Positions 4,620 through 46,641 of a stretch of 64,000 nucleotides of DNA are shown in pieces; position 1 is the first letter of the stretch, and each line of letters opens with the position of its first letter. Origin of the DNA: a bacterium UBP8_UBA817 (GTDB lineage: Bacteria; Margulisbacteria; Marinamargulisbacteria; UBA817); the NCBI GenBank assembly GCA_002296285.1, contig DBHX01000055.1, positions 297 through 64,296 on the forward strand. The letters run 5' to 3'. The notes under the pieces are model-generated. The model was not told where the DNA came from. It searched no databases and saw only the letters and a list, made by a program, of their open reading frames with translations. A program made the translations under genes and the position numbers.

Positions 4620-4645
4620 ATTGTTAGGGGGGGCACTTTAAACTT

Positions 4646-5713: not shown

Positions 5714-5783
5714 GGTTTAGTTTATTTATCAACTGTTATGTCAGTGTTTGTTCTTTGAACGAACCCTCCCTGACGGGCCTAAT

Positions 5784-5993: not shown

Positions 5994-6006
5994 TGGGCGC
6001 GGCAGG

Positions 6007-6255: not shown

Positions 6256-6321
6256 TGGCTGTGGTGTCTAATTTAGGATGATAACGTATGGGTTAAACGG
6301 TTGGGGTCATTGATGCCATCG

Positions 6322-30600: not shown

Positions 30601-33288
30601 GATGATGCTCAATTGCGTTTTTCGCCATTGATTGACTCTGTTGGTTTTGAAATTCATTCAGATGGGACCCAACAAATGAAGTTTCAACATTCTAAGGTGA
30701 GTTTTGGCTCAACGGATGTGCCCAGTTCGCCAACCAATAGTGCCTATGTTCGTCAGGGGGCTTTTATTTCAGATCGCTTAATGTTAAATGATGAACATAT
30801 TGAGTTTAAAACAATTCGAACCCCAACCAATCGTTTTATTCATGATTATCGCAATCAGGTGCAGCGCCTGTCGTTTGATTTTGATTCAGGATTCGACATA
30901 TCAACCCCGTCGGACAATGCGGTTGTCTTAACATTTTTAGACCATTTTTCAAATATGAGTTCGGTGTCTGCCAATATTGTGATTACCCCAAACACTCAAA
31001 TTATTACCCCAAATGGCATTGATATGATGTCGTTTCTTGGAGATAATATATCCATTCAGGCCAATAATGTTGACTCTGAAGGGGATCCAGATGGATCCAT
31101 GGATTCATTAACGTTTTATAATGACTTAATGAATGGGGGCACAATCAATGGGGATTTGTTGATTTCAGCGACATTAAATTTCATTGGTAATGATTCAGAT
31201 GGCGTGGTGAATGGTTTTGAGGGTGATATCTCCAATATGTTTAATATACCATTTCCATGGCATCATACGGTGACTGAAAATGGCGAGTTGGTTCATTATG
31301 AGTATGTGATTACTGAAAATGTGGGTATTGGTCTTACAAACCCGCAATACCCACTCCAAGTGGCTGGTGTAACGTCCATGAATATTGCTCAATCGCCATC
31401 CATTAATGTGCAGAAAGATTTTGTTTCGAATAAGGATTATCTGAATATGGTTGCTGATGGCAATGAATTTAACGTAACGGTGAACTCATCAGGAATGATG
31501 AATGACTCGGTTCTTCAATGGAGTGGTGCGCGGTTGACGGATAATATTTTTGGATTGAATGGGTTTAACACAGCCTATACCATGTCGCTTTATCCAAAAT
31601 CTGAGGGTGTCAATGCGGACCTTTACATTGAGGGAAGAGAGCGGGCTCGATTTACCCTGCACGAAGCGTTTGATTTATTGAGTGATGCCAGTGGTGATAT
31701 GCATGTCACTGCGCTTGGCTCTGTCAATGATTTGATATTCATGAACCCAAGTACAAGCCTCTATGTTTCAACGGATCAACGCTTGGGCATTGGTATGTTT
31801 AAAAAACCTCAAAATAGTTTGGATGTTTCGGGAAATATGGTGATTGGATCATCATTGGCGGGAACCATTCAAGCACCTCAGAATTCCGTGATGGTTCAAG
31901 GGAAGTTGGGGGTTGGAACCCGTTCCCCGGACGCCTATGCTGATGTTCAAGGATCGGTGGTGGTTGCTGAATCTGATGGTTATTTGGGCGCCATTACAGG
32001 GTTGTCCAATGATTTGGTTGTTGAAACCAAATTATTTATTGATGAACTAGATCCAAGTATGACTGAGAGCATGCTTGTGAATGGCGATATGCTGGGCATT
32101 GGGAATGTGTATTTTAATAAAACGGCCAATGCAGCGACGTCCGAATTGGCATTTTTTAATGATTCTGATTCTCGTGTGGCAATTGGTTATGGGCAAAGTA
32201 AAACCGATCGGTCACTGGCTATTTCTGGTAAAACATATGTAAAACTTACTCCAAAGTACAATATTAAAGGGATCTATATTGATTCTGCAAAGCGTGTTGC
32301 TTTGGGCCATGACGCTCCGGAATCATTATTTCATGCAAAGAAAAATAATATCTCAATGAAATTAGAGGCAACGGGTAATGGGGATTCAACCGTTAAATTT
32401 GAATCTGGAAAGAATGGTTTGATGGGGATTTCCTCGGCTGTTCAAAGTCAATTCTTGTTATCAGATGGTGAAAACTTGCAAACAGCCGGATCCGATGTAT
32501 CGATTGATAGTGCTGGCAATGTGGATATTGGATACAATTTGGCCAATTCCCAAACAGTTCAGCCCACTCACTCAGTGAGAGTGGACATCAATGGAAAAAT
32601 CAATGCGGGCAGTGTGCTTGAAAATGGGCAAGTATTGACACATATGCCTGAGGGTAGCATCATCATGTGGTCTGGCTATATGTCACAGCTTCCCGATGGT
32701 TGGGAGCTATGTGATGGAACCACCACTTGTCCTCAAAACTTGGAGGGTTATTTTGTGTTGGGGAAATCCTCAGGTCAAACCGTGGGTGAAGACGCGGGTG
32801 TTGATACTTTCTCAGTTGCAACATCCAGTGATTATTCCCATAAACATGTTTCAAATCATACACATGGTGGATTTACATCGACCGCTCATGGGCATAATGA
32901 TTTAGATATTGGTGATAAGAATGACACAACGTATACATCGGGTAACGATGTGCCCAGTGGCACTAGTTCTGTGGGCCAGAGTGGATTCACAGAAACTTGG
33001 GAGGAGTGTTGGTGGATTGATCTTTTTGGTTTGTTTTGTGAGGAAAAGAGTCGGTGGCATGATTATCCATCGCATGTTGGGTACAATGGGCCATCAACAT
33101 CCAATGGGCATCATAATCACTCAGTGACCATTAATCATGGTCATAATTCGAGTGTTAGCAATGACACTCATTCCCATACCTTGGCTGATCAATCTCATGA
33201 GCATGCCAATGCAACGCATGACCATACCGTTGATAATGAACCGATTTATTATCAATTGGCGTTTATTTACTTGAAAGGAGAAGGATAG
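27664..33288 (+). CDS. Giant secreted tail-fibre-like protein of 1874 aa, with the same C-terminal tail-collar and HxH-rich architecture.
   Basis: Its start overlaps the upstream stop (TAATG). A signal peptide, the GDGEFIYNV fibre motif, and a Gly/Asn repeat block at nt ~28510-28900 are present. The collar domain (nt 32644-33285) reads GSIIMWSGYMSQLPDGWELCDG... with eight HxH motifs and ends ...DNEPIYYQLAFIYLKG. Confidence 0.78.
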   Translation: MLKKILCLLSLLFIASIARPITFQLYVYDTANQEPLNTTDVVAIQSSFVDANGVVYFETSQDQQVSNGILHMTLDLDLSDGSQLMAFDQPGMQIKVNLLDDELLMPLESMPLSIGSNLSDRTFQINDPDLMTIQYNEGVVNIGGGRSTENALHVNGVLTADYFKGDGEFIYNVVGSGFNDDHSLERNFSRSCPPNVSRPECSYGNDVLYISSNPFVGINTTQPKMLLDMVGTVLFTKGQDNVGGLTFPLKKHQSLMAWDHSSAAFRAGYVSRDASVSAEGFSRSSVSIGRDVFISGRNSSVIGGQGHDISGNFSSILGGEQNSVTGNYSVLVGARSDQIHKSYVSTIGGESNIVSSNYSVLLSSSFNTLGGEYITIMGKNNLVNGESVFVYGDNNQINSNHTIVMGNSSLINHDNSWVVNVSSTVLAQTTNPNQVIWMADQGVSINTDDYSESLVVGGDLMASMIYGDGSQLTNVSAVDKYWLMVDNIMTNENYSLGIGTSLKRNNRINLRYGLTLSSDGSTRPGTMAYEHGDLIGYGETATHSLLVQDTDTVYNVSSEFLNDNNVLYLSTANAMANDYLVFTGQAWEPKVKSLWVDSSSFLSYSRPVSLWKNQSYFGRLTMAHPTLNHMVFSDATHTQGMSLNVAGLKDNNQVFAFGFNIKDIEEKQPFNVLNDSFLFHFDSLNGGIVIQNLTNSLMEIDRYTDINFFDHAGLMDINIPTKTRVESIVIDDGDDSEMAHVNFIDDPFISVNSAGRIRFQTPETATINLRILPPTYDSLLTQTRLQVTDRSEVILSHQDGFSVGQPMLTIPEGNMLIDVGYGIGVFDSDGSMKTGGRIFSDAVVFTPDSSGLNRVYFHDIGFGVRTTPDQLVVIQDNDVSMLVKKSPQDDASSLVFSKQMLPKWTIQSGAELGASTLVIRNAQAIEILKMNQKILINSPNSPSKEISMNGNLTIMDSNLQLTPMSGSDNPTNAIPFVFIDDAQLRFSPLIDSVGFEIHSDGTQQMKFQHSKVSFGSTDVPSSPTNSAYVRQGAFISDRLMLNDEHIEFKTIRTPTNRFIHDYRNQVQRLSFDFDSGFDISTPSDNAVVLTFLDHFSNMSSVSANIVITPNTQIITPNGIDMMSFLGDNISIQANNVDSEGDPDGSMDSLTFYNDLMNGGTINGDLLISATLNFIGNDSDGVVNGFEGDISNMFNIPFPWHHTVTENGELVHYEYVITENVGIGLTNPQYPLQVAGVTSMNIAQSPSINVQKDFVSNKDYLNMVADGNEFNVTVNSSGMMNDSVLQWSGARLTDNIFGLNGFNTAYTMSLYPKSEGVNADLYIEGRERARFTLHEAFDLLSDASGDMHVTALGSVNDLIFMNPSTSLYVSTDQRLGIGMFKKPQNSLDVSGNMVIGSSLAGTIQAPQNSVMVQGKLGVGTRSPDAYADVQGSVVVAESDGYLGAITGLSNDLVVETKLFIDELDPSMTESMLVNGDMLGIGNVYFNKTANAATSELAFFNDSDSRVAIGYGQSKTDRSLAISGKTYVKLTPKYNIKGIYIDSAKRVALGHDAPESLFHAKKNNISMKLEATGNGDSTVKFESGKNGLMGISSAVQSQFLLSDGENLQTAGSDVSIDSAGNVDIGYNLANSQTVQPTHSVRVDINGKINAGSVLENGQVLTHMPEGSIIMWSGYMSQLPDGWELCDGTTTCPQNLEGYFVLGKSSGQTVGEDAGVDTFSVATSSDYSHKHVSNHTHGGFTSTAHGHNDLDIGDKNDTTYTSGNDVPSGTSSVGQSGFTETWEECWWIDLFGLFCEEKSRWHDYPSHVGYNGPSTSNGHHNHSVTINHGHNSSVSNDTHSHTLADQSHEHANATHDHTVDNEPIYYQLAFIYLKGEG

Positions 33289-36200
33289 TGTTTGGCCGGG
33301 CCATTTTTTCGTTCCTTTTTGTGATTAGTCTATCTCTTTTTGGAAGTGATTATACCCATCGTCTTCAATTAAATATTAATTTGGCAAAATCGTATTCCAA
33401 TGGCATTCACCAATCCATGGTTCCAGTGATTGGAACTCACAATGTTGATATTGAGATTGTTCCCTTACTTACGGATGGGTTTGGGGATCCATTTTGGTCA
33501 TTGTCTAAAGCGACGTATATTGATAAAGGTGATTTGGCCATTTCTGTTGAAGATTCATCCATGGATTGGGTTCATTTATTAAGAAATAATGAACTGTATT
33601 TTCGTATTCGGGTACTGGATGATTTGTTGGATATTCCATTTGAGGTGTTGCCGTATTCAACATTATCTGATTTTACGGATCGTGCTAAGTATTTTCATGA
33701 TGATTCAATCATTAAGGTGGATTATGAGCACGCTCGTTTGGTGATTAATTCCTCCACCTCCAATGCTGAATTGGCGGTGAGTGGATCTATTCGTGCGGGC
33801 TATTTTTCAGGGGATGGATCAGAATTAACCAATTTAACTGGCCCTGGATTTAATAATGAATACTCTTTGAACTCCGATGATGGTATTCATAAAGATGTGT
33901 TACTCATTGATTCAACGGGAAATGTTGGCATTCATACCATAACTCCCAATGCTCGAATTCATGTGAAGGGCAATACGGTGTTTCAGGGGGTTGCAAATCC
34001 TGATTTGGAGGGTTATTTGGTGCCATCCGGTGCGGTATTGATGTGGGATCCTTCAAGGGGTGCTTTTCGATCGGGTCAATTTGAGGGTCCGGTGAATTCA
34101 AGTGATATTGGGGCCTATTCGATTGGTTTTGGTGATGATGTGCTCATTAAATCAATGTATTCATCCATTTTAGGTGGGGATAATCAAGTGATTGAAAGAA
34201 CTGGATTATCTTCGGTGATTTTGGGTGGTCAAACTCATTCGATTTTAAATAACTATTCGGTGGTTGCTGGTGGCTATAGAAATTTAATTGGTGGTGAATG
34301 GAGTGTTGTTCTTGGTGGTCGAGAGCACAATGTCTATGGTGATTACAATGTTGTTTTGGGTGGGGATCTAAATGAGGTAAGGGGTGGATTAAATACCGTG
34401 ATTGGTCGAAATAATGTCATGATGGGGGACTTTTCAATTGCCATTGGATCCAACCATAATGTTTCTTCAAATCTGTCGGTAGCGTTGGGGAAAAATACTC
34501 AGTCGAATAATTACTATTCCACGATTTATTCGGATGGTGTGAATGAGATCGCGACAAGTAAACCTGAGCAATTTGTGGTTTATTCAACTCAAGGTGTTGG
34601 CATTAATACAACTCCTGAACAAGGATTTTCGTTGACGGTTTCTGGCAATATCAAAGCCAATAAATATTATGGGGATGGTCGGTATGTAAGAAATATTATT
34701 GCAGGTCAGGATTATTGGAGACAAGTTTCATCACCACAGGGCATTTATTATATGCATGGACCAGTATCTGTTGGAACCATTTCATCTTATGCTAATTTGA
34801 CGGTATCTGGTGGGATTACCATTCAAGACGCTGATCAGGCCTCCAATGGAACCATGGGTTTTTCTGAGCAAGATGGGTTGCGTTTTTTTCATGATGAATG
34901 GATCTCTATGGATCAAGTTGATACCGATACCACATTGAGTGCTGGGAGGGGGACTCAATTGGATGACACGACATTTTCGTTGGCCCCAATGGGCGCTCAA
35001 GCCCATCAGGTGATCTATTTTAATGGCAGCCGTTGGGCTCCAAAAATACCCTTTATATGGCAACCTCATGAGAATGGTCATTATTTAGAAAAGCAATGGG
35101 CGTTATTTGATGATGCATCGTCCTCTACTCTTAAGTCGGCGGTTGTGATTGAATCGCCCAGTGGGGGAACGATTAAACCTTATCCTTTGGTGGTTGGATT
35201 AACGGATACCATGATGGTGTCGCCCCAAGATAACATCATGTTTTTTAATTTGGACTTTAGAGATAGCAATAAAGATAGTTATCAGATTGTTAATGCGCTT
35301 GGTCAACGTGTGGGGGATACGTATGGTGGATTGATTCGTGTAACGGATAAATTATTGAGTATTCAACAAACCAAAGTTCCTGCAACATCGCAAGATGTTG
35401 TTCAAATGAGATCGTTGTTAAATATGACGCCAACCAGTTTATATATTCATGAGGATGTTCCTCAAGCCACATTTGATTCCAAAGGATCCATTGGGTTTTT
35501 ACATACCATTGTGGATAAAAATAATATTGGGTTTGGTCATCAAGTGAATATTTGGAATCGATTTCCAAATTACTTGTATTTAGACCAAGGGAATCACCTT
35601 AATTTCTTTGCGGGTAATGATGCCGTTTCACAACCCATTCAGTTTAAAATCAATGGTCAAAATCAATTAACATTTAATTCCGATGGTGACATGATTGTTG
35701 GGAACGGTGTGGCCCATGCCAAATTATCAATCTTTGGTGGCGGTCTTTCATTTAATGTGGATGACACGCTTATTGAAGGAACCATGCGGTATGGAAAGTG
35801 GGCATCCATTCACTCGGTGTCAGTCGCTGATCCATCGATTTATGTTCAGGTGAATAATGAGGTCGTTGCAGATATTGGGCATTTAAGTATGGCCATTGGT
35901 ACAAAGAATTCAACATTGGTATCCATGTTGGGAGTATCCGAAACAGCCCCTTTGCTGAACCTTCGATCATCACAAAACTCTGTGGTAAGATTAGAAAATT
36001 CAGAATCAAATGCCATGTTTGCCAATCAGGACGGATCATTTTATCTAAAACATGAGTCGGCGAGTCAGCCGCTTTTGGCATTGGATGGGTCTCAGCATGT
36101 TAGTTTTCTGACATCAACGTTTTCAGAAAAGCCAACCCGTGAAGTTGTCATAAATGGTAGCATTGAGTTGTCCAATGCGGACTCCATATTGCTTCAAGAT

Positions 36201-38795
36201 GCACAAAAATCAACCATTCTTTCAGTTTCAAAAAGTGGAAACAATGTTATGATGACGCATCAAAACCCTGAGCCGATTCGATTCAGTTCTGCCAGTGATT
36301 CTGTGATGATGTTGGTGTCAGCCAATCGAAAAGTAGCCATTCAATCGGAAACGGTGACTGAGAATGCGCAGGTATATGTTGTCGGGGATATCCTATTTGA
36401 TGGCCCCATATATTATCAACATGGCGGAGAAAATCAGTTGGTTCAATCCTTTGTTCTTGATAAGTCATCCAGTGATTCAGCCAATGAGTTGGAGGTAAGG
36501 TCCATAAAATCTCTGATTGTGGATGAAGAATCCGGCGTTGGGTTATCTGTCATTGATGCTGACTCGATTCGGTTGTCAGCCCCGGGGTATTATCGCAAAA
36601 TGTTTGAAACCCCAGAGTATGATGGCATTGATGTGGACCCACTAAATGACCCGTTTTATGTTGAGGCCAATGGGAAAGATATTCTTGAGTTGAAAGAGGT
36701 GTACCCGAATGGCGGTGTTTCTATTAATATGTTGGATACAAATAGTGATGGTGTTGGGGATGCTATTGAGTTGTATAATCCGTTGATTGATGGTGGTATC
36801 ATCAATGGTGATGTGACATTAAATGGGCGGTTGGAGCTTCGAGGGGTGAACGCCAATGGTAGTCGAGTGTCTAATATTCCATTTCGATGGATTAAACGCA
36901 TCAATGATTTGACGTATTCTTCAGGTAATGTTGGGATTAATACATCATCTCCGAATTATGTTTTGGAGGTTAATGATCTGATGCATACGGATGAACTTAC
37001 TGTATCTGATCAATTAATTGCGCAACAGATCGTGTTTGATGATTCTACAGCGACAACAGTCAATCAGAACATTACATATAGTGTGGATGCGGACAATACG
37101 GAGTCCAATGATCAGATGATCTTTAACTCAGCCAATGGTCCGTTGTTAACATTGAAGGCCCAAGGCAACAATCAACAGATTGGGGTTTTTAATGAATTGC
37201 CTGAAGTGGATCTTCATTTAAAGCGGACGGGGACACCCGCCAAGGTGTTGTTTGAAAGTGAGCCGTCTGGAAAATCTGGCATTTCATTCATGGCATCTTC
37301 TTCTGGAAAAGGTGGCGTGTTTCAAATTAATAACAGTCGGGACGACAATCCTTCTGGGGGTGGCCCCAATGAATCGGTGCTTATTTCCAGTGGGAATATC
37401 ACCTTGCATACCAATGGGGCCCCATCCGTGTATGTAACGGATCATTCTGTATCCATTAATAAAGCGGTTGATCAAAATGAATTTTATGCCGATAATACCG
37501 TTACCGTTGGTACTGATTTTGCTGGGGTTGTGGTTAACTCTGATCAGGGGTTAACCATTCAAGAAAAGTTATTTGTTGGTCATGAAAATGCCGTGGAGCC
37601 TGGAGCCACCTTTTATGCCAAAGATGCATTGATGGTTGGGGATACGGTGGCAAAGCCGACTAATTTTAAAGGGGTGATTGTTCAGAGGCATTTGGGTGTT
37701 GGATTGTCACAACCAAGTGAAGGAATATCTGTCAAAGGGGGCTTGAAATTAAAGAATGAATTATTGATGCATAGTGATCGTTCAACGCCGTTATTTAAAA
37801 TTACGCCAACGGCATTTGATGTGATTCCTACCAATCGAAGTTTGGATTTTCAAGTATCGAAAGAATTGTTTTTTTCAATTGATCAACAGCGTGCGATGAC
37901 GATTTTTCAAAATTCAGTAACCATTGGCTCAGATGCCGAAAAAGACGATAGTAATTTCTTTTTGGTTGATAATGTGTCCGCCAATGGTGCCAAATTATTT
38001 TTGGACGATCAAGCGGGGTTTCCGAAGATTCATTTTCAATTAAATAATGGAAGCCGTCATGCGAGCATTGGCATTGATGCACATGCTTCAATAACCAAAG
38101 TATTAATCAATGCAAATTCCCAAAACCCGTCTTCTGAAACAAATATGATTGTTACGCCAGGGAAGGTCGGTATATCAAAAACCCCCGATCATGCATTGGA
38201 TGTGAGTGGGACATTGAAATCAGAGACGATTTATTTGAATGATGATCGCATGTACCCGGTGCCGCCTGGTGCCATCGTCATGTGGTCAGGAACAACCCCT
38301 CCGGCGGGGTGGCAGTTGTGTGATGGCTCAAACAATACGCCTGATCTAAGAAATAAATTCATTAAAGGATCAAATTTTGATGGCATGAATATCACGGGGG
38401 GGCAAAATTCTATGTCAATTACGGGGGGTGCTCATAATCATATTGGTGGTGCTCATGATCATTCAATTTCTGGGGGGACCCATGCGCATGAAACAACAGT
38501 AAGTCCGTCGTCATTTAATAGTGTTGGGGCTGTTACGGTTTCATTAAATCGATCCGATTATCGTTCTAATGGAGGGTCGGGTGATAACCCAAGTCATACT
38601 CGCTCCCATGGTCACAATAATCCAACATCTCACACTCATGATTTATCTGGGCAAGGCGATGGTGGGGAGCATCATGAGCAACATGCGGATACTCCAGGAA
38701 CGCACACTCATGCTGGTGGTGGGCATACGCACACTTGGGATAATCAACCGGCCTATTATATTTTGGCATTTATTATTAAAGTATCGGATACGTAG
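33288..38795 (+). CDS. Giant secreted tail-fibre-like protein of 1835 aa, with the same C-terminal tail-collar and HxH-rich architecture.
   Basis: A GTG start overlaps the upstream stop (TAGTG). A signal peptide, the FSGDGSELTNL motif, and a Gly/Asn repeat block at nt ~34110-34500 are present. The collar domain (nt 38261-38792) reads PPGAIVMWSGTTPPAGWQLCDGSNNTPDLRNKFIKG...GGAHNHIGGAHDH...HTHTWDNQPAYYILAFIIKV. Confidence 0.78.
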   Translation: MFGRAIFSFLFVISLSLFGSDYTHRLQLNINLAKSYSNGIHQSMVPVIGTHNVDIEIVPLLTDGFGDPFWSLSKATYIDKGDLAISVEDSSMDWVHLLRNNELYFRIRVLDDLLDIPFEVLPYSTLSDFTDRAKYFHDDSIIKVDYEHARLVINSSTSNAELAVSGSIRAGYFSGDGSELTNLTGPGFNNEYSLNSDDGIHKDVLLIDSTGNVGIHTITPNARIHVKGNTVFQGVANPDLEGYLVPSGAVLMWDPSRGAFRSGQFEGPVNSSDIGAYSIGFGDDVLIKSMYSSILGGDNQVIERTGLSSVILGGQTHSILNNYSVVAGGYRNLIGGEWSVVLGGREHNVYGDYNVVLGGDLNEVRGGLNTVIGRNNVMMGDFSIAIGSNHNVSSNLSVALGKNTQSNNYYSTIYSDGVNEIATSKPEQFVVYSTQGVGINTTPEQGFSLTVSGNIKANKYYGDGRYVRNIIAGQDYWRQVSSPQGIYYMHGPVSVGTISSYANLTVSGGITIQDADQASNGTMGFSEQDGLRFFHDEWISMDQVDTDTTLSAGRGTQLDDTTFSLAPMGAQAHQVIYFNGSRWAPKIPFIWQPHENGHYLEKQWALFDDASSSTLKSAVVIESPSGGTIKPYPLVVGLTDTMMVSPQDNIMFFNLDFRDSNKDSYQIVNALGQRVGDTYGGLIRVTDKLLSIQQTKVPATSQDVVQMRSLLNMTPTSLYIHEDVPQATFDSKGSIGFLHTIVDKNNIGFGHQVNIWNRFPNYLYLDQGNHLNFFAGNDAVSQPIQFKINGQNQLTFNSDGDMIVGNGVAHAKLSIFGGGLSFNVDDTLIEGTMRYGKWASIHSVSVADPSIYVQVNNEVVADIGHLSMAIGTKNSTLVSMLGVSETAPLLNLRSSQNSVVRLENSESNAMFANQDGSFYLKHESASQPLLALDGSQHVSFLTSTFSEKPTREVVINGSIELSNADSILLQDAQKSTILSVSKSGNNVMMTHQNPEPIRFSSASDSVMMLVSANRKVAIQSETVTENAQVYVVGDILFDGPIYYQHGGENQLVQSFVLDKSSSDSANELEVRSIKSLIVDEESGVGLSVIDADSIRLSAPGYYRKMFETPEYDGIDVDPLNDPFYVEANGKDILELKEVYPNGGVSINMLDTNSDGVGDAIELYNPLIDGGIINGDVTLNGRLELRGVNANGSRVSNIPFRWIKRINDLTYSSGNVGINTSSPNYVLEVNDLMHTDELTVSDQLIAQQIVFDDSTATTVNQNITYSVDADNTESNDQMIFNSANGPLLTLKAQGNNQQIGVFNELPEVDLHLKRTGTPAKVLFESEPSGKSGISFMASSSGKGGVFQINNSRDDNPSGGGPNESVLISSGNITLHTNGAPSVYVTDHSVSINKAVDQNEFYADNTVTVGTDFAGVVVNSDQGLTIQEKLFVGHENAVEPGATFYAKDALMVGDTVAKPTNFKGVIVQRHLGVGLSQPSEGISVKGGLKLKNELLMHSDRSTPLFKITPTAFDVIPTNRSLDFQVSKELFFSIDQQRAMTIFQNSVTIGSDAEKDDSNFFLVDNVSANGAKLFLDDQAGFPKIHFQLNNGSRHASIGIDAHASITKVLINANSQNPSSETNMIVTPGKVGISKTPDHALDVSGTLKSETIYLNDDRMYPVPPGAIVMWSGTTPPAGWQLCDGSNNTPDLRNKFIKGSNFDGMNITGGQNSMSITGGAHNHIGGAHDHSISGGTHAHETTVSPSSFNSVGAVTVSLNRSDYRSNGGSGDNPSHTRSHGHNNPTSHTHDLSGQGDGGEHHEQHADTPGTHTHAGGGHTHTWDNQPAYYILAFIIKVSDT

Positions 38796-38933
38796 CTTAG
38801 GCGCTGCTAATTGTCATGCCTTTTTTGTTCAATGTCTTCTTGGATTTTCACTCCCTTCGGGATCTCACGGGGTACACCCTAATGTCACTGAGTAACAAAT
38901 AAAGATTTACACAAGTATAAAGATAATTAATTC

Positions 38934-38951
38934 TGTATTTAATAAAATACA
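38934..38951. promoter_or_regulatory. Palindromic operator-like site 18-35 bp upstream of the small HTH gene.
   Basis: A perfect inverted repeat TGTATTT-aata-AAATACA, followed by an ATACtGTAT mini-palindrome. Confidence 0.4.
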
Positions 38952-38968
38952 TACTGTATGTTAATGAA

Positions 38969-39391
38969 ATGAGCTACAAAAAAGAAGTTCTATTTAATCA
39001 AGCAATAGATATTATTAAAAAGCATAACATCACAAGCATTGTGAGCTTAATCTCTTATATGCCATGTCAAAGAAGTACTTTCTATGAACATTTCCCTAAT
39101 AAATCGGACAAATCGGACACCTTAAAAAAAGAGATAGAGAAAAACAAGGTGTTCATGAAAGAGAAATTGGTTAATATATGGCTTGATCCAGAAAAGTCAT
39201 CACCAGCAGAGCGAGTCTTTTTTTACAAGCTATGCATGAATCAAGAAGAAAAAGAAATACTTTATGATACTCAGATTAAAAAAAGAATTGATCCCCCTAA
39301 ACATGAAATAACATTAAACCTAATTGATAGTAAGAATGAGGCCTTAAATACGGTTCGTGATAAAGAAAATTCAATCCTTAAAATAGTTTGA
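38969..39391 (+). CDS. Small DNA-binding protein with a TetR-like N-terminal HTH. It is AT-rich and probably part of the island.
   Basis: The segment ...AIDIIKKHNITSIVSLISYMPCQRSTFYEHFPNKSD matches the TetR HTH signature (...G...t......aGvs.gtlYhHF.sKe.L). The protein is 140 aa. Confidence 0.4.
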   Translation: MSYKKEVLFNQAIDIIKKHNITSIVSLISYMPCQRSTFYEHFPNKSDKSDTLKKEIEKNKVFMKEKLVNIWLDPEKSSPAERVFFYKLCMNQEEKEILYDTQIKKRIDPPKHEITLNLIDSKNEALNTVRDKENSILKIV

Positions 39392-39493
39392 CTTTAAAAA
39401 TTTGAGCCTATAAATAAATATTAATAAGGGGGGATAAAATGGGGTTATTTAGTCCACCATTAAAGCCCTCCAATATCGGCAATAAAAGAAACC

Positions 39494-39525
39494 AGGGGGG
39501 GAGTATCCCCGCCCCTCTTTTTTTT
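39494..39525 (+). terminator. Rho-independent terminator downstream of the HTH gene.
   Basis: A GGGGGGG-agtat-CCCC(g)CCCC stem-loop followed by a T8 run. Confidence 0.5.
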
Positions 39526-39574
39526 GGGGATTACTTTATATTACGAACCAGGGGGTGTCTTTTCTGTATTCGTT

Positions 39575-40270
39575 ACAAACCCTCAAATGGTGGAAAGTCA
39601 GTCGACCCCAAACATTGAACTGAGGGCAGCTAAGCCAACGATATTAGTTAATCCCGAAGATTGTGCTTCATCTACAGAAGATTGTTCTCCATTTACATCT
39701 GTGGGACATTCACAATTATAAATATCTAAGCTTAGGGGTGGTTCATATTTCCCCCCGCTTTCAACTTTATCTGTACAATTTTGCCATGGTCTAAAAAGCG
39801 CCTTACCTACAGCCAAATATGTGCTACAGTTCAAACCTGTAACACTTTGTTTATCCTTAGGAGGTATGGTGGGCTCCTCTACAATTTTAGAATAATAGGG
39901 GTTGTAATCTGGGGATCCTGTAGACCTAGTAAATTTACCCTTATTTCCTTCATCAACACACTCAGCCTTATCGTAAATTTGACGGGCTTTAATTACAAGT
40001 TCTGAGTTTTCATCACCATATTTGCATATATCTTCAATGCCTTCTCTAAGTCCTCTTATTCTTTCGCTTTGTATACTGATAATTAAGCCTGTTTGATTTA
40101 CCGGTGTTTGTGATTGAGCTGAAGAGGAAGCACCCAACCCTAATGCGACAACTCGACAAATATTTCTTATTCCAATCATAATTCTTAACCTCTATTTATT
40201 TTTATTTTACTTTACTAAAAATCATGAGAAAATTCAACGTCCAATTAACAACCCCTCAAATAGTGGAAAG
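39575..40270. repeat. 23-bp imperfect direct repeats (39575-39597 and 40248-40270) flanking the single secreted-protein gene.
   Basis: ACAAACCCTCAAATGGTGGAAAG versus ACAACCCCTCAAATAGTGGAAAG, matching at 21/23 positions. Confidence 0.55.
39598..40179 (-). CDS. Secreted Cys-rich hypothetical protein.
   Basis: A signal peptide (MIGIRNICRVVALGLGASSSAQS) and 8 Cys in 193 aa. It is flanked by 23-bp direct repeats. Confidence 0.5.
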   Translation of the reverse strand: MIGIRNICRVVALGLGASSSAQSQTPVNQTGLIISIQSERIRGLREGIEDICKYGDENSELVIKARQIYDKAECVDEGNKGKFTRSTGSPDYNPYYSKIVEEPTIPPKDKQSVTGLNCSTYLAVGKALFRPWQNCTDKVESGGKYEPPLSLDIYNCECPTDVNGEQSSVDEAQSSGLTNIVGLAALSSMFGVD

Positions 40271-40403
40271 AAAAAAGATTTGAAATGCCTCAACCGATGG
40301 AATGGAATTGATCAAAATATCATTCGGAGATAGGGAGGGGTCAAAGGCTTAGCATGTGACCCCATCATATCGAATCGCAACGATTTGAGGCTAAATTAGG
40401 GAT

Positions 40404-40448
40404 AATGGCACAGTGTGCAATAAAACAATAAATGGCACAGTGTGCCAA
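40404..40448. promoter_or_regulatory. Two copies of AATGGCACAGTGTGC, each containing the inverted repeat GGCACA-G-TGTGCC, spaced 27 bp apart.
   Basis: The copies sit at 40404-40420 and 40431-40448, just left of the iteron origin. Confidence 0.4.
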
Positions 40449-40525
40449 AGTCCTTTCGCATTTTCGGACATTGCTGGAAACTTCCTTTTTTCTTCCACCA
40501 TTTTTATTTTGACACAATCAATTAA

Positions 40526-40818
40526 TTGCCACCCTATTGCCAACATCTTGCCACCCCTTTGCCACACTATTACCACCCTTTTGCCACCCCTATATTTATA
40601 TAGAATTGCACTCAAATATATACATATTTCCCAATAATTGCCACAAATAATAGCAAGTTACTGGAATAATCACAAAAACCCAAACGAAACTGGCAAAAAA
40701 TCCAAAAGGGTGGCAACTTTGCCACTTTTAGCCTCAAAATTACGATTTTTTAAGGGTGGCAATTCGTGGCAATTAGCCTCAAACCACTGTGTCAATTTTG
40801 TGGCAATTTTAGTGGCAA
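40526..40818. other. Iteron-type replication-origin-like region. It has six phased 11-bp direct iterons, an AT-rich spacer, and inverted iterons.
   Basis: TTGCCACC-type motifs start at 40526, 40537, 40548, 40559, 40570 and 40581, with an exact 11-bp period. The AT-rich segment spans 40592-40705. The inverse motif (G)GTGGCAA occurs at 40708, 40754, 40765, 40800 and 40812, with a degenerate copy at 40788, also in ~11-bp phase. There is also a palindrome GTGGCAActTTGCCAC at 40710-40725. The region abuts the 3' end of the SF3 helicase gene. Confidence 0.6.
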
Positions 40819-40825
40819 TTAAGTT

Positions 40826-42256
40826 TTATGAGGATTTTTCCCCGATGCCCAAATAGTAGAAATGGCGTTCCCCGTTTATCATTAATCTTTCTTTCCTTAC
40901 CTTTTCTTTTCTGAGCTTACTCACAATTTCTTTTCCGATGGCGTTTATGTTTAACTCACCAGAAAGGTTATTTAACTCCATATATTCGGAATACAAGTCC
41001 TGTAACCTGTCCGATCGAATCTTCGCGTTTTCATTCACGATTAAATTGTTTTTGATAAAGTCTTGAATCGGGTCAATCACCTTTAAATAGGCATTTGTTG
41101 CCTTTTCAATGTCTTTGCTTGGTCTAAACCTGTAATTCCTGTCCTGGAGCCTTTTTAGGCCTTGTAGGGCAAAAAGAAAAACTTGCTTAAACTCTTTTTC
41201 GAGAATATCGTTAGCTAGATTAACATTTACCTCATCATTAGGAACTTGCCTCGTGAAAGGGATATTCAGAACACGTCTGGCGAAACCATGTGAGTTATCT
41301 GGCACTTCTGGGCAATGGTTGACTGCAAATATAAGTTTTGCGAATGGTTTATATGACACCAAGGGTTTCCCCTTAATATTTATCGTGATTCGATCACCAG
41401 CAACAATGGCCTTAAATACTCCAGTATTGGCATCTTCTTTGAATCTCATGCGTTTGCTTTCCGCACTGATTGAGGCTGTTTTACCGATCAAATCAGAATT
41501 ATAAAATTCCTTATTGAATGATTCAAAAGTTAGTGACGATGTGTTTTCTTTGCCCAACAAGCCAGTTAAAACATCGCATATAACGGACTTACCATCCTGA
41601 CCACTTCCCCAAAGAAAAAAGGCTTTTTGTGCCTTTGTGTGGCTTGTTAGACAGTATCCCATCATTTCTTGAATCAAGTCCAAGGTCTCTTGGGGTTCCT
41701 CGTAGTAGGCATTAAAAAAGGTATCTTCAAAGTATTTTTTGAGGATGGGTGCATTATCAAGTGGATTAAAATGAACGTCATTCACCTTGTCTAAATCATC
41801 GCCAGAAAGCGATATTTTAAACATATTCGTATTATATATTTTTGGGTTATGGGGAATTAGATTGAATGTTTTTGAGCCAATATCTAGAATACAGTTGTCC
41901 AGTATTAAATAATCCCTTTTATCGTTTATTTCACGTTCCATTTCAATTAGTGAGATTAATTCAAGGTGTGCTGAAATTTGTGATGCCTTACTTTGTGTTG
42001 CCTTTTGTCCATTGTCGATAGTCTCTAAAATCTTTAGGGCTTCACTTTTGATACGAGCCTTACTGTCTAGCTTCTTCCATATTTTGCCATCATACACATA
42101 AAAATCATCGGATGTTGGAACATAAAGAACATTGCCTAGCTTTTCTTTTAATGCTTCGGTTATTTCCTTGTCTGTTGATTTGGTATGGAGTTTAAACTTC
42201 TTTTTTTCTTCCATCACCTGTATTTCTGTTTCTTCGGCGTTGATTACGTTCTTCAT
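40826..42256 (-). CDS. Phage/plasmid primase-helicase, P4/D5 family C-terminal region (D5_N plus SF3 NTPase). No N-terminal primase domain is evident.
   Basis: Walker A is FLWGSGQDGKSV. Walker B and the arginine finger lie in ...KLIFAVNHCPEV...GFARRVLNIPFTRQV. The upstream D5_N-like segment reads DYLILDNCILDI...LIPHNPKIYNT. The overall match to the phage/plasmid-primase P4 C-terminal family is strong. Confidence 0.8.
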   Translation of the reverse strand: MKNVINAEETEIQVMEEKKKFKLHTKSTDKEITEALKEKLGNVLYVPTSDDFYVYDGKIWKKLDSKARIKSEALKILETIDNGQKATQSKASQISAHLELISLIEMEREINDKRDYLILDNCILDIGSKTFNLIPHNPKIYNTNMFKISLSGDDLDKVNDVHFNPLDNAPILKKYFEDTFFNAYYEEPQETLDLIQEMMGYCLTSHTKAQKAFFLWGSGQDGKSVICDVLTGLLGKENTSSLTFESFNKEFYNSDLIGKTASISAESKRMRFKEDANTGVFKAIVAGDRITINIKGKPLVSYKPFAKLIFAVNHCPEVPDNSHGFARRVLNIPFTRQVPNDEVNVNLANDILEKEFKQVFLFALQGLKRLQDRNYRFRPSKDIEKATNAYLKVIDPIQDFIKNNLIVNENAKIRSDRLQDLYSEYMELNNLSGELNINAIGKEIVSKLRKEKVRKERLMINGERHFYYLGIGEKSS

Positions 42257-42753
42257 ACCTTCGCCCCCATTGCTCTTTGGACAAGCGTTTTTACGTCACC
42301 TTTATACTTTAAAAAGTAATCGGTTAAATCTTCACCCTTGAGGCTACAAACATCACTCAGATCAATCATGGTGATGTAAATATCCCAAAACTCATCGCCA
42401 TTGAAATCAATAATGCTAAGGTTCATGCCGCTGCCAGCATCATCAAATTTATAGTGTCTGGCCTTATCAATAAATACCAAATGGTTTTTTTGGATGAAGA
42501 GCTCATCTTTTCCAAAATCATTGATAACAATAATGTCTTTAAGCCCATCATGATTAATGTCAATGATGGAACAAGCCAGTCCAACACCGGTTGATTCAAT
42601 GGTTGGTATTGAAATCATTTTAAAAGTGTTGTTGTCATTGATAATAAGTTTGTTCGGTGCGGCGTTTCTACCATTTATGGATGGTTGGTCCTTCATTATT
42701 TGTGTAACATAAATGTCCAAATCGCCATCATTATCAATATCATTGGTACACAT
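42253..42753 (-). pseudogene. FG-GAP/Ca-binding repeat protein, C-terminal portion. It is probably the 3' part of a single gene interrupted by a frameshift.
   Basis: D-x-D-x-DG motifs (DIDNDGDLDIYV, IDINHDGLKDIIV, IDFNGDEFWDIYI). Its start lies 15 nt downstream of the stop of the preceding ORF, in a frame offset by 1. Its stop overlaps the helicase start. Confidence 0.5.
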
Positions 42754-42767
42754 TGTAAATGCGTTTG

Positions 42768-44069
42768 TTAAAGGGATGTGTTGTTTTTTTTCAAAATTGA
42801 GTGGTGATATTTGTTCAATAAACGTGATTTTTTTGAGGATAGGGCAATTAAATCGAGACGATAATCTTGATTAAAATCAATCGCGTATACTGCGGATAGC
42901 CGTTTGTCTGATGGGTAAGTAAATACTGGGGCTGAAAATCCGTCGGGAGTATTGATGTGTATGGTGAGCTGGTTGTCTTGAGGGATAATCAGATCGACTC
43001 GTCCATCGTTATTTATATCGACACTGCTTAGGTCACTAAAGTACCCTTTATTGCTTTTTATTTTTTTATTAATCGGAGTTTCAATGATGTGATTAGTTTT
43101 AAAATATGGTTTCGGTTGAATATTATTTTTGATGGTCCAGTTAAATTCAATATCATTGATTTGATGAAACTTTTTTCCATAACTCTCATATTTTGTTAAA
43201 AGATCAAAGATTGATATGGACATCTCTTTTGCTAATGTAAAGTAAACAGCATAAAATTCAGAGATCCGTTCAGCCAATAATTCCAATGCAAAAGGGTCCA
43301 TAATGGCGGTTCTGTAATTGGTTTGAATTTCTTTAATGGTATCCCAGTGCATGATGGTATCTCGAATGCTATCCAATGTGTAGTGTCGTATGGTTATTAA
43401 TTTTAGATCGTCCTTTGGTTGTTTTAATTGCATGGCCACTTCCAAATCGCCATTGTTGAGCAACTTGAATGGTAATGTTTTGAGCAAATGATTAAATTCA
43501 TCTTCAAAGGTTACAATTTGGTAGGCAAAATCTGTTTTATTGATGTCTTCTTTGTTTATTTCTGAGAATTGATTCGTATCTATTCGCAATGAATCAATCG
43601 GGAATAGTAAAAAATTTAAGTTTTTAATGAAGTGTTGTTTTAGTAAATCAATTTCTTTTTGATTGACGGGTAGTTTAAATATTTTGGAGAGTAATTTTGC
43701 TTGATATTCGGATGTTAAGGGTTGTTGCCAAACGGTATCGTTGTATTTCATCAGTGCGTTGATTTTATTTTTTGTGATATTATTTGATATTTTTTTTAGC
43801 CAAAACAGGTATAAAAATGATGTTTTTTTATTGGGTGTATTTATTGGTTTTAAGTTCAATTCACGTCTGATTTCTTTGTAGGCAAATTGGATATCTTCTT
43901 TGGTAATTTTGGGATGATGATTGCGAATGGCTGATTCCTTTGCAAAGTGCAATAACTTTGTATTTAAATGCGTTGAAATTGAGACTAATTGGTGAATGTT
44001 TGAGACAGATAATTCCATTAAAATTGTTGTATCAATGTTTTCATTTCCCAAGTCAAATAGGATGGACAA
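42768..44069 (-). pseudogene. FG-GAP repeat protein, N-terminal portion (433 aa). An A8 tract lies in its last codons (plus-strand T8 at 42784-42791).
   Basis: VDINNDGRVDLII and IDFNQDYRLDLI motifs. The C-terminus ...ILKKNNTSL is encoded across the poly-A run. A 1-nt slip would fuse it to the downstream ORF. Confidence 0.5.
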
Positions 44070-44084
44070 TAAATATCGGAAATG

Positions 44085-44492
44085 TTAAGTTAAACGGTGA
44101 TAATGATATTGCTGATTTTCAATCAGTGTCATGGAGTCTGTTTGGTTTGTGATTGGGTTTAGCCAATGGGCATTTTCTTGACCAATGATATGCAATAGAT
44201 TTTCTGAAAATGATGCATCATTGCTGGATGCAGATTGCCAAATATTCCATAGCAATGTTTTCATTGCTTCAATTTTTAGGGTCATGGCAAAGTATGTTAA
44301 TGGAAGGCGTGCTTGGTGAAATTCCATCATTCGAACGGTTGACCAACAGGTGCAGTCTTTTTCTATTTCTTGTTTATGGATCATTGAGTTTAATGTTTTT
44401 GCTGTTAATATTAAGTGAGGTGTTAACAGTGTTTTATATCCAATGAGTGTTGTTGCACCGAGTATGAAAATTGTGAGAATTATTTTTCGCAT
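44085..44492 (-). CDS. Hypothetical secreted protein.
   Basis: A signal peptide (MRKIILTIFILGATTLIGY). The gene is AT-rich and 135 aa long. Confidence 0.4.
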   Translation of the reverse strand: MRKIILTIFILGATTLIGYKTLLTPHLILTAKTLNSMIHKQEIEKDCTCWSTVRMMEFHQARLPLTYFAMTLKIEAMKTLLWNIWQSASSNDASFSENLLHIIGQENAHWLNPITNQTDSMTLIENQQYHYHRLT

Positions 44493-44544
44493 GTCAATTT
44501 TTACATTCTTATATTGTTAAAAAAAAGTTAAGTGATCTCATTTT

Positions 44545-45417
44545 TTAGTTTAAATAGATGCTCTTTAAAAATGTATTTAGAATACTGGAGGATAAAAGAA
44601 AAATATAAAATAAGTAGAGAATGTAGATAAATTTTAATTTAATGTCCTCTTTTTTTATCAATACAAATCCCATGGTTAATAATGCGTAAGCAAATCCTCG
44701 AATGGGTAGAACAAAGTAAAGGCTGCCAAAGATTAATAAAAATGAATGTTGCCAAATGTATACTTTTTTTCTTTTTAAAAAGAATAACAATGCCAGTATT
44801 CCTTCAATAATGAGTGTGTACCAGGTGAGGAACTTGCTGATGGGATGTAAAATATAGGGGCCGGCATTTAGTATGACTGTTTTGGTTTCATAGGTGACTT
44901 TATTTATCAGGTATATATTTTCTGATATCACTTCTGAAAGGTTGTATTGAATGAGTGGCCCAATAAAATTAAACCGTTGATCAGTAATTAATTTGTAATA
45001 AAAGAAATCTCCGCTTAAAAAGTTGGGGTTTAATTTCTGAACGAATGCGTATGCCATGCAAAAAGCGATGAGGTATTTTGCGGATAATTTTAATGATTCA
45101 TGTTGATTGGTTGTGAAAAAGCTTGTGCAAATGGCCAATAGCCAATACCCCCAAAGGTAAATGTGATTATCGATGATTTGCCAATTTTGTATGACAAATA
45201 GAAAATAAAAAGTGGTGATCGAGATCCAGTAATATTTTGAATGTCGACTTCGTTCAAACAATATCCCAATGCTTCCCAATGTAAGTATTGGGAGATATAT
45301 TATGGGGTTGCTTTCAATAATCGATTCAAAATGAAGCACGATAAAAAATATGGAGAGTAAAATTGAGAATTTTTGTGGATGAATGACTCGCAATTGTTGG
45401 GTAATTTTTTGTATCAT
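44545..45417 (-). CDS. Polytopic integral membrane protein of unknown function.
   Basis: About 8 predicted TM helices in a 290-aa, AT-rich protein. Its start overlaps the upstream gene's stop. Confidence 0.5.
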   Translation of the reverse strand: MIQKITQQLRVIHPQKFSILLSIFFIVLHFESIIESNPIIYLPILTLGSIGILFERSRHSKYYWISITTFYFLFVIQNWQIIDNHIYLWGYWLLAICTSFFTTNQHESLKLSAKYLIAFCMAYAFVQKLNPNFLSGDFFYYKLITDQRFNFIGPLIQYNLSEVISENIYLINKVTYETKTVILNAGPYILHPISKFLTWYTLIIEGILALLFFLKRKKVYIWQHSFLLIFGSLYFVLPIRGFAYALLTMGFVLIKKEDIKLKFIYILYLFYIFLLSSSILNTFLKSIYLN

Positions 45418-45908
45418 TTTAAATAATTTATTTTTCGAATTAATTTGGGTTCTAATGTAAAGGATCGTTTATTAAAAGATAAGTCAAATACCTGAATTTC
45501 GACAGAATCAAATTTGGCGATGGTATCCTGTGCCCTTAGTTTGTTATTTTTTCCAATCATCGTAACACTTTTTTTTGGGGTATTGATATTTTGATAGATC
45601 CAAATTTTTTTCGTTAGTGTTTTTGTTAAGCTTTCGAGTGATAAATATTTGGGATAGTATTTAATTTTTTGAAACTCAACCATTTGATCTGGGCTTGGCA
45701 TCGCGCATTCAAATGCCCCTCGATTTAATAAGTGTATGTGAAAGAATCGGGTATTAATTCTAGAAAACATCCCAAATCCGCCGCCTTTCCAATGATCCAA
45801 GTGATCGACACTGGCAAGGTATATTTGACGAAGTGCGACCATATTTAATATCAGTATTGGTATAAAGGCTGGCCAAAATATTTGGAAAGTTTTAACTATT
45901 TTTTTCAT
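45414..45908 (-). CDS. Hypothetical protein with an N-terminal TM helix.
   Basis: A 164-aa protein whose gene overlaps both flanking genes by 4 nt and 17 nt. Confidence 0.4.
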   Translation of the reverse strand: MKKIVKTFQIFWPAFIPILILNMVALRQIYLASVDHLDHWKGGGFGMFSRINTRFFHIHLLNRGAFECAMPSPDQMVEFQKIKYYPKYLSLESLTKTLTKKIWIYQNINTPKKSVTMIGKNNKLRAQDTIAKFDSVEIQVFDLSFNKRSFTLEPKLIRKINYLK

Positions 45909-46641
45909 TTAAGATTAAATCTAAGTATGGTGACAATTTGCAGGTGATTGGCATAATATAATTGTGTTGATTTTTTTCTTTGCATTGTTGAATGATATCT
46001 TTTGCGATTTTGATATTATAATCCAATGATAGATTGAACTGTGGGGGAAATACAACATTATTTCTAGATGTCCAGTAATTGTATGATTTTTCAGTCAACA
46101 CCGGTGAAATTCCGATGAACCATTCGCATGGATTGCACTGATCTAATAATATATTCACTAAGTTCACATCAAACAAAGGTTGAGTAAACAGTCCTTTTGC
46201 ACCGGCAGCTAGTTTTTTTTGTGAATAGCTAAATTCTTCTTTAAAACTCTGACGATAGGGGTCATGACCGGCGTAAATGGATAGGTTGGTGTAGGCGGTA
46301 CTTAATTCTTTGATGACCGATATGATGTTATGTTTATATACGGGTTGCAATGGGTTGGGTGGGGGGTCCCCAGAAATGATCAATATGTTTTGAATGTTGG
46401 CCATAAGAAGGTTTTGACACAGTTGATGAAGTTCCTCCGTAGAAAAATCACAGATGCGAATATGTGGGATGCAGTTGATATTTTCTTTTGCCAAATATTC
46501 ACAAGCGGTATAACTGCGGTTATTGATTCGCAATATGTCAGGAACATTAATCCCATTGATTTGAGGGAAGGTATTCATTGCCCAATGGCTTTCATTTATT
46601 AGTTTGTTTATCTCTGTTGGGACGAGTTCTAAGAAAACCAT
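45892..46641 (-). CDS. Methylenetetrahydrofolate reductase-like (MetF family) protein.
   Basis: The segments LELVPTE..., ...CIPHIRICDFS... and ILIISGDPP resemble the MTHFR motifs (fEfFPP, HLTC, LRGDPP). The match is divergent. Confidence 0.45.
   Translation of the reverse strand: MVFLELVPTEINKLINESHWAMNTFPQINGINVPDILRINNRSYTACEYLAKENINCIPHIRICDFSTEELHQLCQNLLMANIQNILIISGDPPPNPLQPVYKHNIISVIKELSTAYTNLSIYAGHDPYRQSFKEEFSYSQKKLAAGAKGLFTQPLFDVNLVNILLDQCNPCEWFIGISPVLTEKSYNYWTSRNNVVFPPQFNLSLDYNIKIAKDIIQQCKEKNQHNYIMPITCKLSPYLDLILNEKNS

Follow-up and report, generated by a model that had tools for sequence, protein, structure and literature searches.

The alpha protein of the phage satellite P4 unites primase, helicase and origin-binding domains in a single polypeptide of 777 amino acids (aa), whose D5_N/superfamily 3 (SF3) helicase is accompanied by a C-terminal winged helix that binds octameric 'type I' iterons (TGTTCACC). 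Besides ori, P4 requires a second cis site, crr, and it can persist as a plasmid. The IncQ plasmid RSF1010 encodes a RepA helicase, a RepB' primase and RepC, and carries the ssiA and ssiB hairpins; the IncQ helicase is not an SF3 enzyme, and the iteron-binding protein RepC is separate from it. The P4 alpha protein, ori and crr are reportedly the subject of work by Ziegelin et al. in 1993 and 1995 and by Yeo et al. in 2002. Here we analyse a stretch of 64,000 nucleotides (hereafter the window) from the bacterium UBP8_UBA817 of the Marinamargulisbacteria, in which an array of iterons adjoins the gene for an SF3 helicase, here called Rep. The closest described system is the replication module of the Staphylococcus aureus pathogenicity islands (SaPIs), whose iterons lie immediately 3' of rep, half on each side of an AT-rich centre and in opposite directions (PMC9371898). 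The C-terminal winged helix of SaPI Rep recognises these iterons, and the helicase loads itself without other factors (PMC9371898).

We consider it quite probable that positions 40325-40825 of the window are the vegetative origin of a plasmid, part of the primase-helicase-origin (pri-rep-ori) module of an undescribed family of 6.3-7.4-kb marine plasmids, and that an arc of ~3.49 kb from this family is lodged in a Marinamargulisbacteria chromosome. Free circular relatives, an empty site in a close relative and co-variation between iterons and winged helix all support this reading; they also bear out the initial annotation, made from the sequence alone, in its proposal of an iteron origin beside the SF3 helicase of an integrated, decayed replicon.

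A probable iteron-type origin and its free plasmid relatives

Most of the local architecture given in the initial annotation was recovered. Six TTGCCAC-type iterons start at 40526, 40537, 40548, 40559, 40570 and 40581, at a spacing of exactly 11 bp by both direct reading and a repeat finder; in order, their words are TTGCCACC, TTGCCAAC, TTGCCACC, TTGCCACA, TTACCACC and TTGCCACC, three of the six being one-base variants. Eleven of the 17 exact TTGCCAC heptamers in the window lie inside 40526-40818, and the other six are scattered singles. The AT-rich segment said to follow this array is indeed there (70% A+T versus 60% window-wide), with a 46-bp core adjoining the array (40592-40637; 80% A+T) and a single lone iteron (40638-40644). 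The inverted motif GTGGCAA is present in five exact plus-strand copies (starting at 40710, 40756, 40766, 40800 and 40812) and a degenerate one at ~40790, which on the helicase strand reads TTGACAC at ~40795; the ~11-bp phase ascribed to these copies holds only in part, the iterons forming pairs 10-12 bp apart with TTGAGGCTAA boxes between them and no continuous array. The palindrome GTGGCAAAGTTGCCAC at 40710-40725 includes one opposed iteron copy, and the two copies of AATGGCACAGTGTGC at 40404 and 40431 have no further match in the window. The stem-loop GGGGTCA-N13-TGACCCC is also present, one base away from the 40336-40362 first assigned to it (Table 1). As had been noted, the gene adjoining this block encodes a helicase with D5_N and SF3 motifs; the iterons lie directly 3' of its stop codon. 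No DnaA box with up to one mismatch was found within 40180-40830.

Helicases 56-93% identical to that of the window are encoded on small metagenomic contigs, and independent metagenome assemblies repeatedly yielded four distinct circles of 6.3-7.4 kb. These are a circle of 6,342 bp (L007; terminal overlap of 127 nt, with L006, L008 and L009 as permutations spanning its junction), one of 6,545 bp (L013, L014 and L015; overlaps of 127, 107 and 77 nt, from three assemblers and samples), one of 7,420 bp (L034-L040; overlaps of 127, 119 and 30 nt, from seven assemblies) and one of 6,506 bp (L055; overlap of 99 nt), the last being the one further close member added by helicase-alignment scans of genome, viral and metagenome contigs. 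Circularity is established because L007 has both a terminal overlap and permuted contigs; L006 taken alone was rejected as proof, its wrap-around being only 93% identical over 381 bp.

The circles have about 6-9 called genes, in the order primase gene, SF3 helicase gene, ~0.9-1.5 kb of non-coding DNA, serine resolvase gene and a few genes for small helix-turn-helix (HTH) proteins. Their primase is a separate DnaG-type protein of 362-384 aa (CHC2 zinc ribbon plus Toprim) encoded directly 5' of the helicase. Only the primase, helicase and resolvase are common to all members; among the proteins encoded by the complete circles there are no phage structural proteins, integrase or partition ATPase, and no initiator gene besides Rep. 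Just 3' of the resolvase gene L035 (2440-2560), L007 and L013 have a res-like region of three palindromic subsites with ATAGGGT/ACCCTAT arms. No close relative was found in PLSDB, GenBank phages, IMG/VR or the GTDB representative genomes, where the best matches reach ~36% identity or less. The plasmid family is previously undescribed. Two further features of the non-coding DNA were observed in some members. The stretch separating the hairpin from the res-like site holds about ten tandem 35-bp units (GAAAAAGATTTAAAAACCCTTTTTTATAAGTC...) in L013 (4517-4856), L007 and L055, possibly with a part in partition or copy control; neither the 7.42-kb plasmid (L035) nor the window has them. The non-coding DNA of the 6.3-6.5-kb plasmids also contains a perfect G/C palindrome, CCCCCCCTAGGGGGGG (L013 4089-4104; L006 ~2258-2275), which the window lacks.

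The origin layout of the window follows the orthologous helicase gene in seven other members (L035, L011, L012, L007, L013, L111 and L112), with the proximal iteron cluster in the same position in each. Among members with enough sequence, the shared order 3' of the helicase stop codon begins with direct iterons interleaved with TTGAGGCTAA boxes, a short palindrome with a T-run and AT-rich DNA. Five or six inverted iterons with an exact 11-bp period come next, followed by a conserved AATGG(T)GGAAGAAAAAAGGAA motif, then two to four palindromic boxes and finally the hairpin (in the window, L035, L007, L013 and L055); for L055 the check covered the motif, the boxes and the hairpin. The five- or six-unit, 11-bp-period arrays are found in all complete relatives, and Tandem Repeats Finder reports a period of 11 in L013.

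Other elements around the iterons are conserved to different degrees. The TTGAGGCTAA box, with four copies in the window, three of them in the origin, versus 0.07 expected, is kept in every member of the family irrespective of its iteron word, and probably binds something other than the variable winged helix, for example a host factor or the primase. The operator-like boxes take different forms in the relatives, with three copies in L007, TGGAC-N3-GTCCA four times in L035 and GGGACACAGTCC four times in L013; the HTH proteins that are absent from the insert are likely candidates for binding them. The hairpin, the last block in common with L007-type plasmids, folds as DNA with a z-score of -2.4 and is kept in all four circles, the lower stem in L035 having three compensatory pairs. 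Rfam gave no match across 38800-42400, even at E<=1. A promoter and terminator scan found promoter-like sites at chance level (18 versus 14.3±3.5), and only two palindromes were terminator-like.

Alternatively, the repeats could serve as an operator, a centromere-like partition site or a copy-control array, and the plasmids would then replicate from a different segment. Terminator-like scores on the helicase strand were indeed obtained for the palindrome at 40710-40725 and the corresponding palindromes of the relatives, each followed by a T-run, and the plasmids possess other repeats in the 35-bp tandem units and the palindromic boxes. However, all eight members have just one repeat block in common, composed of iterons, AT-rich DNA and inverted iterons (the 35-bp units are missing from two of them), and the position and geometry of this block match the experimentally defined SaPI origins (PMC9371898). 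With neither a partition ATPase nor another initiator encoded on the circles, we regard such a role for the repeats as distinctly improbable, and treat the block as a plasmid origin in what follows.

The Rep helicase, its winged helix and the iteron words

Rep matches the Pfam domains D5_N (2.8e-8) and DUF5906 (SF3; 1e-18) and has no primase domain. Its Walker A motif, GSGQDGKS, is at residue 217 and RRVLNIPF at residue 327. The catalytic residues by which the initial annotation had proposed to judge the helicase, K223, E266, N313 and R327, are conserved across 54 homologues and all present, as is every other residue that is invariant or near-invariant among these homologues. The protein also matches PHROG families annotated as DNA primase or helicase. 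The best sequence match among solved structures is the SaPI5 primase-helicase 7OLA (5e-15; identity ~21%).

An AlphaFold2 model of Rep has a predicted local distance difference test (pLDDT) score of 87 overall. It predicts a beta-H-H-beta-beta winged helix in residues 405-473, at pLDDT values mostly of 83-92 with one block at 74. In Foldseek searches the best match of the model is again SaPI5 PriRep 7OLA (template-modelling scores of 0.67/0.73), and the 7OLA chains in which the C-terminal domain is built give ~425 aligned columns versus 366-382 for the chains in which it is not.

Eight members with the same origin layout carry six different iteron words, namely TTGCCAC(C) in the window and L035, TTGCCTACC / TTGCCCA in L011 and L111, CTGCCTACC in L012, TTGCCCA in L007, GTCCACC in L112 and ATGCCACC in L013 (and in L055). 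We compared the Rep proteins with that of the window over the helicase core (residues 31-404) and the tail (residues 437-476). L035, which has the same iterons, is 94.7% identical in the core and 95% in the tail. In the members with different iterons the corresponding values are 97.3% and 77.5% for L111, 93.0% and 72.5% for L011, 89.3% and 65% for L012, 80.4% and 60% for L007, and 65.4% and 45% for L112. The last 40 residues of Rep thus track the iteron word and not overall relatedness or the helicase core, and in the model this variable tail corresponds to the predicted recognition helix and beta-hairpin wing of the winged helix. Such constancy of architecture amid changing words is characteristic of a cis element that evolves in concert with the protein binding it, and the co-variation of tail and word suggests that Rep would bind its cognate iterons in a sequence-specific manner.

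The chromosomal insert and its surroundings

Using blastn against the close relative L027 (97% DXS identity, ~95% DNA identity to the window), we delimited the foreign DNA to window positions 38870-42365, ~3.49 kb that replace 784 bp of native DNA. L027 6448-16253 aligns with window 52168-42362 and L027 17038-21909 with window 38877-34059; its empty site holds an intact 955-aa FG-GAP/UnbV_ASPIC gene between a 290-aa gene and a giant gene in the same gene order. The more distant single-cell genome L028 is also without the insert. Presence/absence polymorphism, which the initial annotation had suggested looking for, therefore exists, but the segment of about 8 kb (38.8-46.6 kb) that it took to be the element is too large.

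The insert is collinear with an arc of the 7.42-kb plasmid L035, positions 2526-3254 of which align with window 38870-39597 at 92.5% identity and positions 4465-6398 with window 40446-42377 at 86.4%. It contains 40 primase codons, the whole Rep gene, the origin, the operator palindromes, the hairpin, two small genes and half a res subsite. It lacks the rest of the primase gene, the resolvase gene and the small HTH regulator genes of the free plasmids, and is thus demonstrably truncated. It is flanked by chromosomal genes and has neither the full gene set nor the circular form of an autonomous plasmid, both of which are found in L007, L013, L035 and L055. Compared with every free plasmid recovered it is 8-14% different, and it is a mosaic around 39597-40446: the helicase, iterons and 140-aa gene are L035-like (86-92%), the boxes and hairpin L007-like (85%), and the 193-aa gene neither. 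The boxes and hairpin, together with the 193-aa gene, lie in a middle part that differs from L035, and the L007-like character of the boxes and hairpin implies that the donor was itself a mosaic plasmid of this family; to judge from these sequences, modules have evidently been exchanged within it.

A possible concern is that plasmid and chromosome were juxtaposed by a chimeric assembly, as small high-copy plasmids can be mis-joined in metagenomes. However, independent assemblies from different samples and assemblers (Tara scaffolds, a 122-kb SPAdes node and MEGAHIT k127 contigs) read through both junctions in the same way, and the divergence of the insert from all recovered free plasmids also argues against it, so that an artefact of this kind is extremely improbable. 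The same DNA was recovered in several independent Tara and European Nucleotide Archive (ENA) assemblies of 105-125 kb. One contig, L002, was considered as a different genomic context and rejected, its DNA being 99.9% identical to the window and the differences lying in gene calling within the FG-GAP pseudogene.

The two ends of the genuine insert differ in kind. Junction A falls in the middle of the palindrome TCAATAGGGT-AC-ACCCTAATGA, the outermost of the three res-like subsites. The chromosomal target, GGGGGACACTC, resembles the core of this palindrome. In a 7.4-kb circle with three subsites, a random break would come as close as ~2 bp to a subsite centre in an estimated ~0.2% of cases, and we therefore infer that junction A may be a resolvase-made break or crossover. 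Junction B, 40 codons before the end of the primase gene, may be an illegitimate deletion. Here the open reading frame (ORF) 42253-42753 matches FG-GAP over residues 5-76 and the C-termini of plasmid primases over residues 127-166 (77.5% identity to L011; also L007, L012 and L013). The rest of the FG-GAP/UnbV_ASPIC gene (42362-44492, minus strand), whose last 243 codons are replaced by the insert, has decayed into a pseudogene, interrupted by an in-frame stop (44085-44087) and by a frameshift near 42830.

Of the two small genes, the 140-aa one has a cluster member at >=90% identity (P0125) that adjoins the resolvase gene on the 7,420-bp circle, and its product has a sub-threshold RepB_C match (18 bits versus a cut-off of 27.3). 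The 193-aa ORF has no plasmid counterpart; tblastn of both against the first plasmids gave no match, the 140-aa protein being placed later through the 90% cluster.

The gene content and the junctions both bear on the alternative of a decayed phage satellite, of the P4 or phage-inducible chromosomal island (PICI) type, which the initial annotation had suggested. SF3 D5_N helicases are a family typical of P4, PICIs and phages, as the PHROG 'DNA primase' families attest, and the best structural match of Rep is a SaPI Rep. Nevertheless, the free relatives encode only primase, Rep, serine resolvase and small HTH proteins, and lack integrase, repressor or antirepressor, capsid-redirecting and terminase small-subunit genes. 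The absence of a visible integrase had been remarked on from the outset; neither the insert nor the complete circles has an integrase, an att site, a repressor or packaging genes, and there is no tRNA gene in the window. The junctions show microhomology or a res-like site rather than att sites at a tRNA gene, and the closest relatives in IMG/VR and GenBank phages have ~30% identity or less. A satellite origin is accordingly very improbable, and we retain the interpretation as a plasmid fragment.

All the insert-bearing contigs are 99.9-100% identical, and because of this the insertion looks recent. It might even so have been retained for a function, either as an auxiliary DnaA-independent chromosomal origin or as a plasmid-derived 'immunity' locus conferring incompatibility with, or exclusion of, TTGCCAC-type plasmids, in which the iterons and resident Rep would titrate or handcuff the Rep of incoming plasmids. 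Consistent with this, the Rep ORF is full length with intact motifs in all insert-bearing assemblies, next to an FG-GAP gene with a nonsense codon and a frameshift. Further, the origin is 91% identical to that of L035, with iteron cores better conserved than spacers (3 of 84 core bases diverged versus 24 of 223 others), and L035 is a naturally occurring free plasmid that has the very same iterons and a winged helix 95% identical. On the other hand, the near-identity of the contigs means that the insert may be too young for decay, three of its 12 iteron cores already carry a substitution (versus none of 12 in L035), promoter-like sites occur at chance frequency and the insert is known from one lineage only. 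We therefore find retention for function unlikely; the chromosomal module is most likely a recently captured, non-autonomous remnant. Table 1 lists its features.

Table 1. Positions of the plasmid-derived features in the window
Feature	Position	Strand	Remarks
Junction A	38870-38888	+	Right half of plasmid palindrome (GGGT-AC-ACCCTAATGTCAC); chromosome resumes leftward; from the three-way comparison used for junction B
Putative HTH protein gene, 140 aa	38969-39391	+	Also carried by the 7,420-bp plasmid
ORF of 193 aa in plasmid-cargo position	39598-40179	-	No relation to the 239-aa gene that L035 has there; in segment absent from L027
Conserved hairpin, candidate priming or other cis site	40325-40372	-	Core GGGGTCA-N13-TGACCCC at 40337-40363
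Two palindromic operator-like boxes, TGGCACAGTGTGC(A/C)A	40404-40447	.	Binding protein probably not encoded in the window
Conserved motif AATGGTGGAAGAAAAAAGGAAG, just beyond the phased array	40481-40502	-	In the window, L035, L011, L012, L007, L013 and L055
Rep-distal iteron array, six units, 11-bp spacing	40526-40588	+	Orientation opposite to the proximal cluster
AT-rich spacer, presumed DNA-unwinding element	40589-40709	.	Position kept in all members
Rep-proximal iteron cluster	40710-40818	-	TTGCCAC on helicase strand at 40818, 40806, 40772, 40762 and 40716
TTGAGGCTAA boxes (10 bp), interleaved with proximal iterons	40728-40737, 40773-40782	-	Third, opposed copy at 40385-40394
Rep gene, intact SF3 helicase, 476 aa, presumed origin-binding initiator	40826-42256	-	D5_N, ATPase core and C-terminal winged helix
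Primase remnant, last 40 codons and stop	42253-42375	-	Fused in frame behind FG-GAP pseudogene sequence in ORF 42253-42753
Junction B, chromosome/plasmid	42362-42365	.	4-bp microhomology TCAA; from three-way comparison of the window, L027 and L035

The genes flanking the insert are housekeeping genes (hrcA, dnaK, dnaJ, dnaX, recR, asd, dxs, an exonuclease VII subunit gene and a pyrB-like gene), and the best named homologues of DXS are from Candidatus Marinamargulisbacteria, with 86% identity to an SCGC single-cell genome. Three tandem giant ORFs (1908, 1874 and 1835 aa; 21938-38795, plus strand) end 75 bp before the insert and are kept in L027 and L028; they have essentially no Pfam domains, with sub-threshold ice-binding and tail-collar matches only. 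Window 43000-46000 has a G+C content of 0.31-0.33 over the FG-GAP pseudogene and three ORFs lacking an assigned function; being present and syntenic in L027, it is native DNA outside the insert. Elsewhere, a Fic/DOC-family gene with a DUF4172 N-terminal domain (9207-10307, minus strand) lies in a locally low-GC stretch (0.36).

Proposed mechanism, significance and comparison with known systems

By analogy with SaPI Rep and P4 alpha, the C-terminal winged helix of a hexameric SF3 helicase would read the TTGCCAC(C) iterons, six of which, in 11-bp phase, would present themselves on one face of the DNA, with five or six opposed iterons across the AT-rich stretch. Binding of Rep would melt the AT-rich DNA without DnaA, the helicase would then load itself onto the melted DNA, and the partner DnaG-type primase would begin synthesis; binding, melting and the direction of replication are inferred.

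Several points weigh against the interpretation of the locus as a captured plasmid origin. Replication from this site, whether in the plasmids or in the chromosome, is deduced from sequence. The co-variation could partly reflect weaker constraint on the C-terminal tail, given that there are eight members, two of which share one word. The ~ten 35-bp tandem repeats of the L007-type plasmids might provide another cis site, but L035 and the window do not have them. The GC skew of the circles is uninformative: in three circles the extreme of the cumulative skew adjoins the phased array, yet it says nothing of replication because its sign follows gene orientation and the G-rich iterons. With three of 12 iteron cores substituted and the primase gene lost, the chromosomal origin may be inert. 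Finally, the assignment of the free plasmids to Marinamargulisbacteria draws on this one integration and a similar G+C content.

No plasmid has apparently been described for Marinamargulisbacteria, and a full-text literature search returned no paper linking plasmids to them. Through the integration, cryptic 6-7-kb circles that turn up repeatedly in ocean metagenomes gain a physical link to a host, and the minimal pri-rep-ori cassette of ~3.5 kb could be a starting point for genetic tools in an uncultivated candidate phylum. The family is also a natural series, in which six iteron words are paired with diverged winged helices on near-identical helicase cores, and hence a compact system for the evolution of initiator-origin specificity and thereby of plasmid incompatibility. 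For annotation it carries a warning: an intact 'P4-family primase' gene in a metagenome-assembled genome can be a stranded plasmid fragment.

The kind of replication system found here is already known; the plasmid family is new. Like the SaPI pri-rep-ori modules (Rep1, PriRep5; 7OLA/7OM0), it has an SF3 helicase core with Walker A, Walker B, motif C and arginine finger, a C-terminal winged helix on the helicase (here predicted), and an origin directly 3' of rep in which opposed iterons flank an AT-rich centre, an arrangement also seen in the seven relatives. The free plasmids further share with SaPIs a primase gene directly 5' of rep, and there is no DnaA box. In contrast to the 5-6-bp repeats of SaPIs, the iterons here are of 7-9 bp, with a strict 11-bp array of six. 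The primase is a separate protein of the DnaG type, and the carriers are small resolvase-bearing plasmids of an uncultivated marine phylum rather than integrase-bearing, phage-inducible islands.

With P4 alpha the system shares a D5_N/SF3 helicase with a C-terminal winged helix. It differs in that the 476-aa Rep has no N-terminal primase domain, the primase being a separate gene, in that the origin adjoins rep, and in the absence of the P4 integrase and capsid-size genes. The classical iteron plasmids (pPS10, RK2, F and R6K) likewise have phased direct repeats beside an AT-rich unwinding element, and here as there the iterons are probably also determinants of incompatibility and copy control. 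Unlike in those plasmids, no initiator of the Rep_3/RepA winged-helix dimer type is encoded and there are no DnaA boxes; the initiator is the replicative helicase itself, and loading of host DnaB is presumably unneeded. Small size, a plasmid-encoded helicase and primase, iterons, an AT-rich region and a conserved hairpin as a candidate priming signal recall the IncQ plasmids; however, the helicase here is of the SF3 type and is itself the presumed iteron binder. The system thus works like SaPI pri-rep-ori and P4 alpha/ori, and is neither a SaPI, PICI or P4 satellite nor a Rep_3 plasmid.

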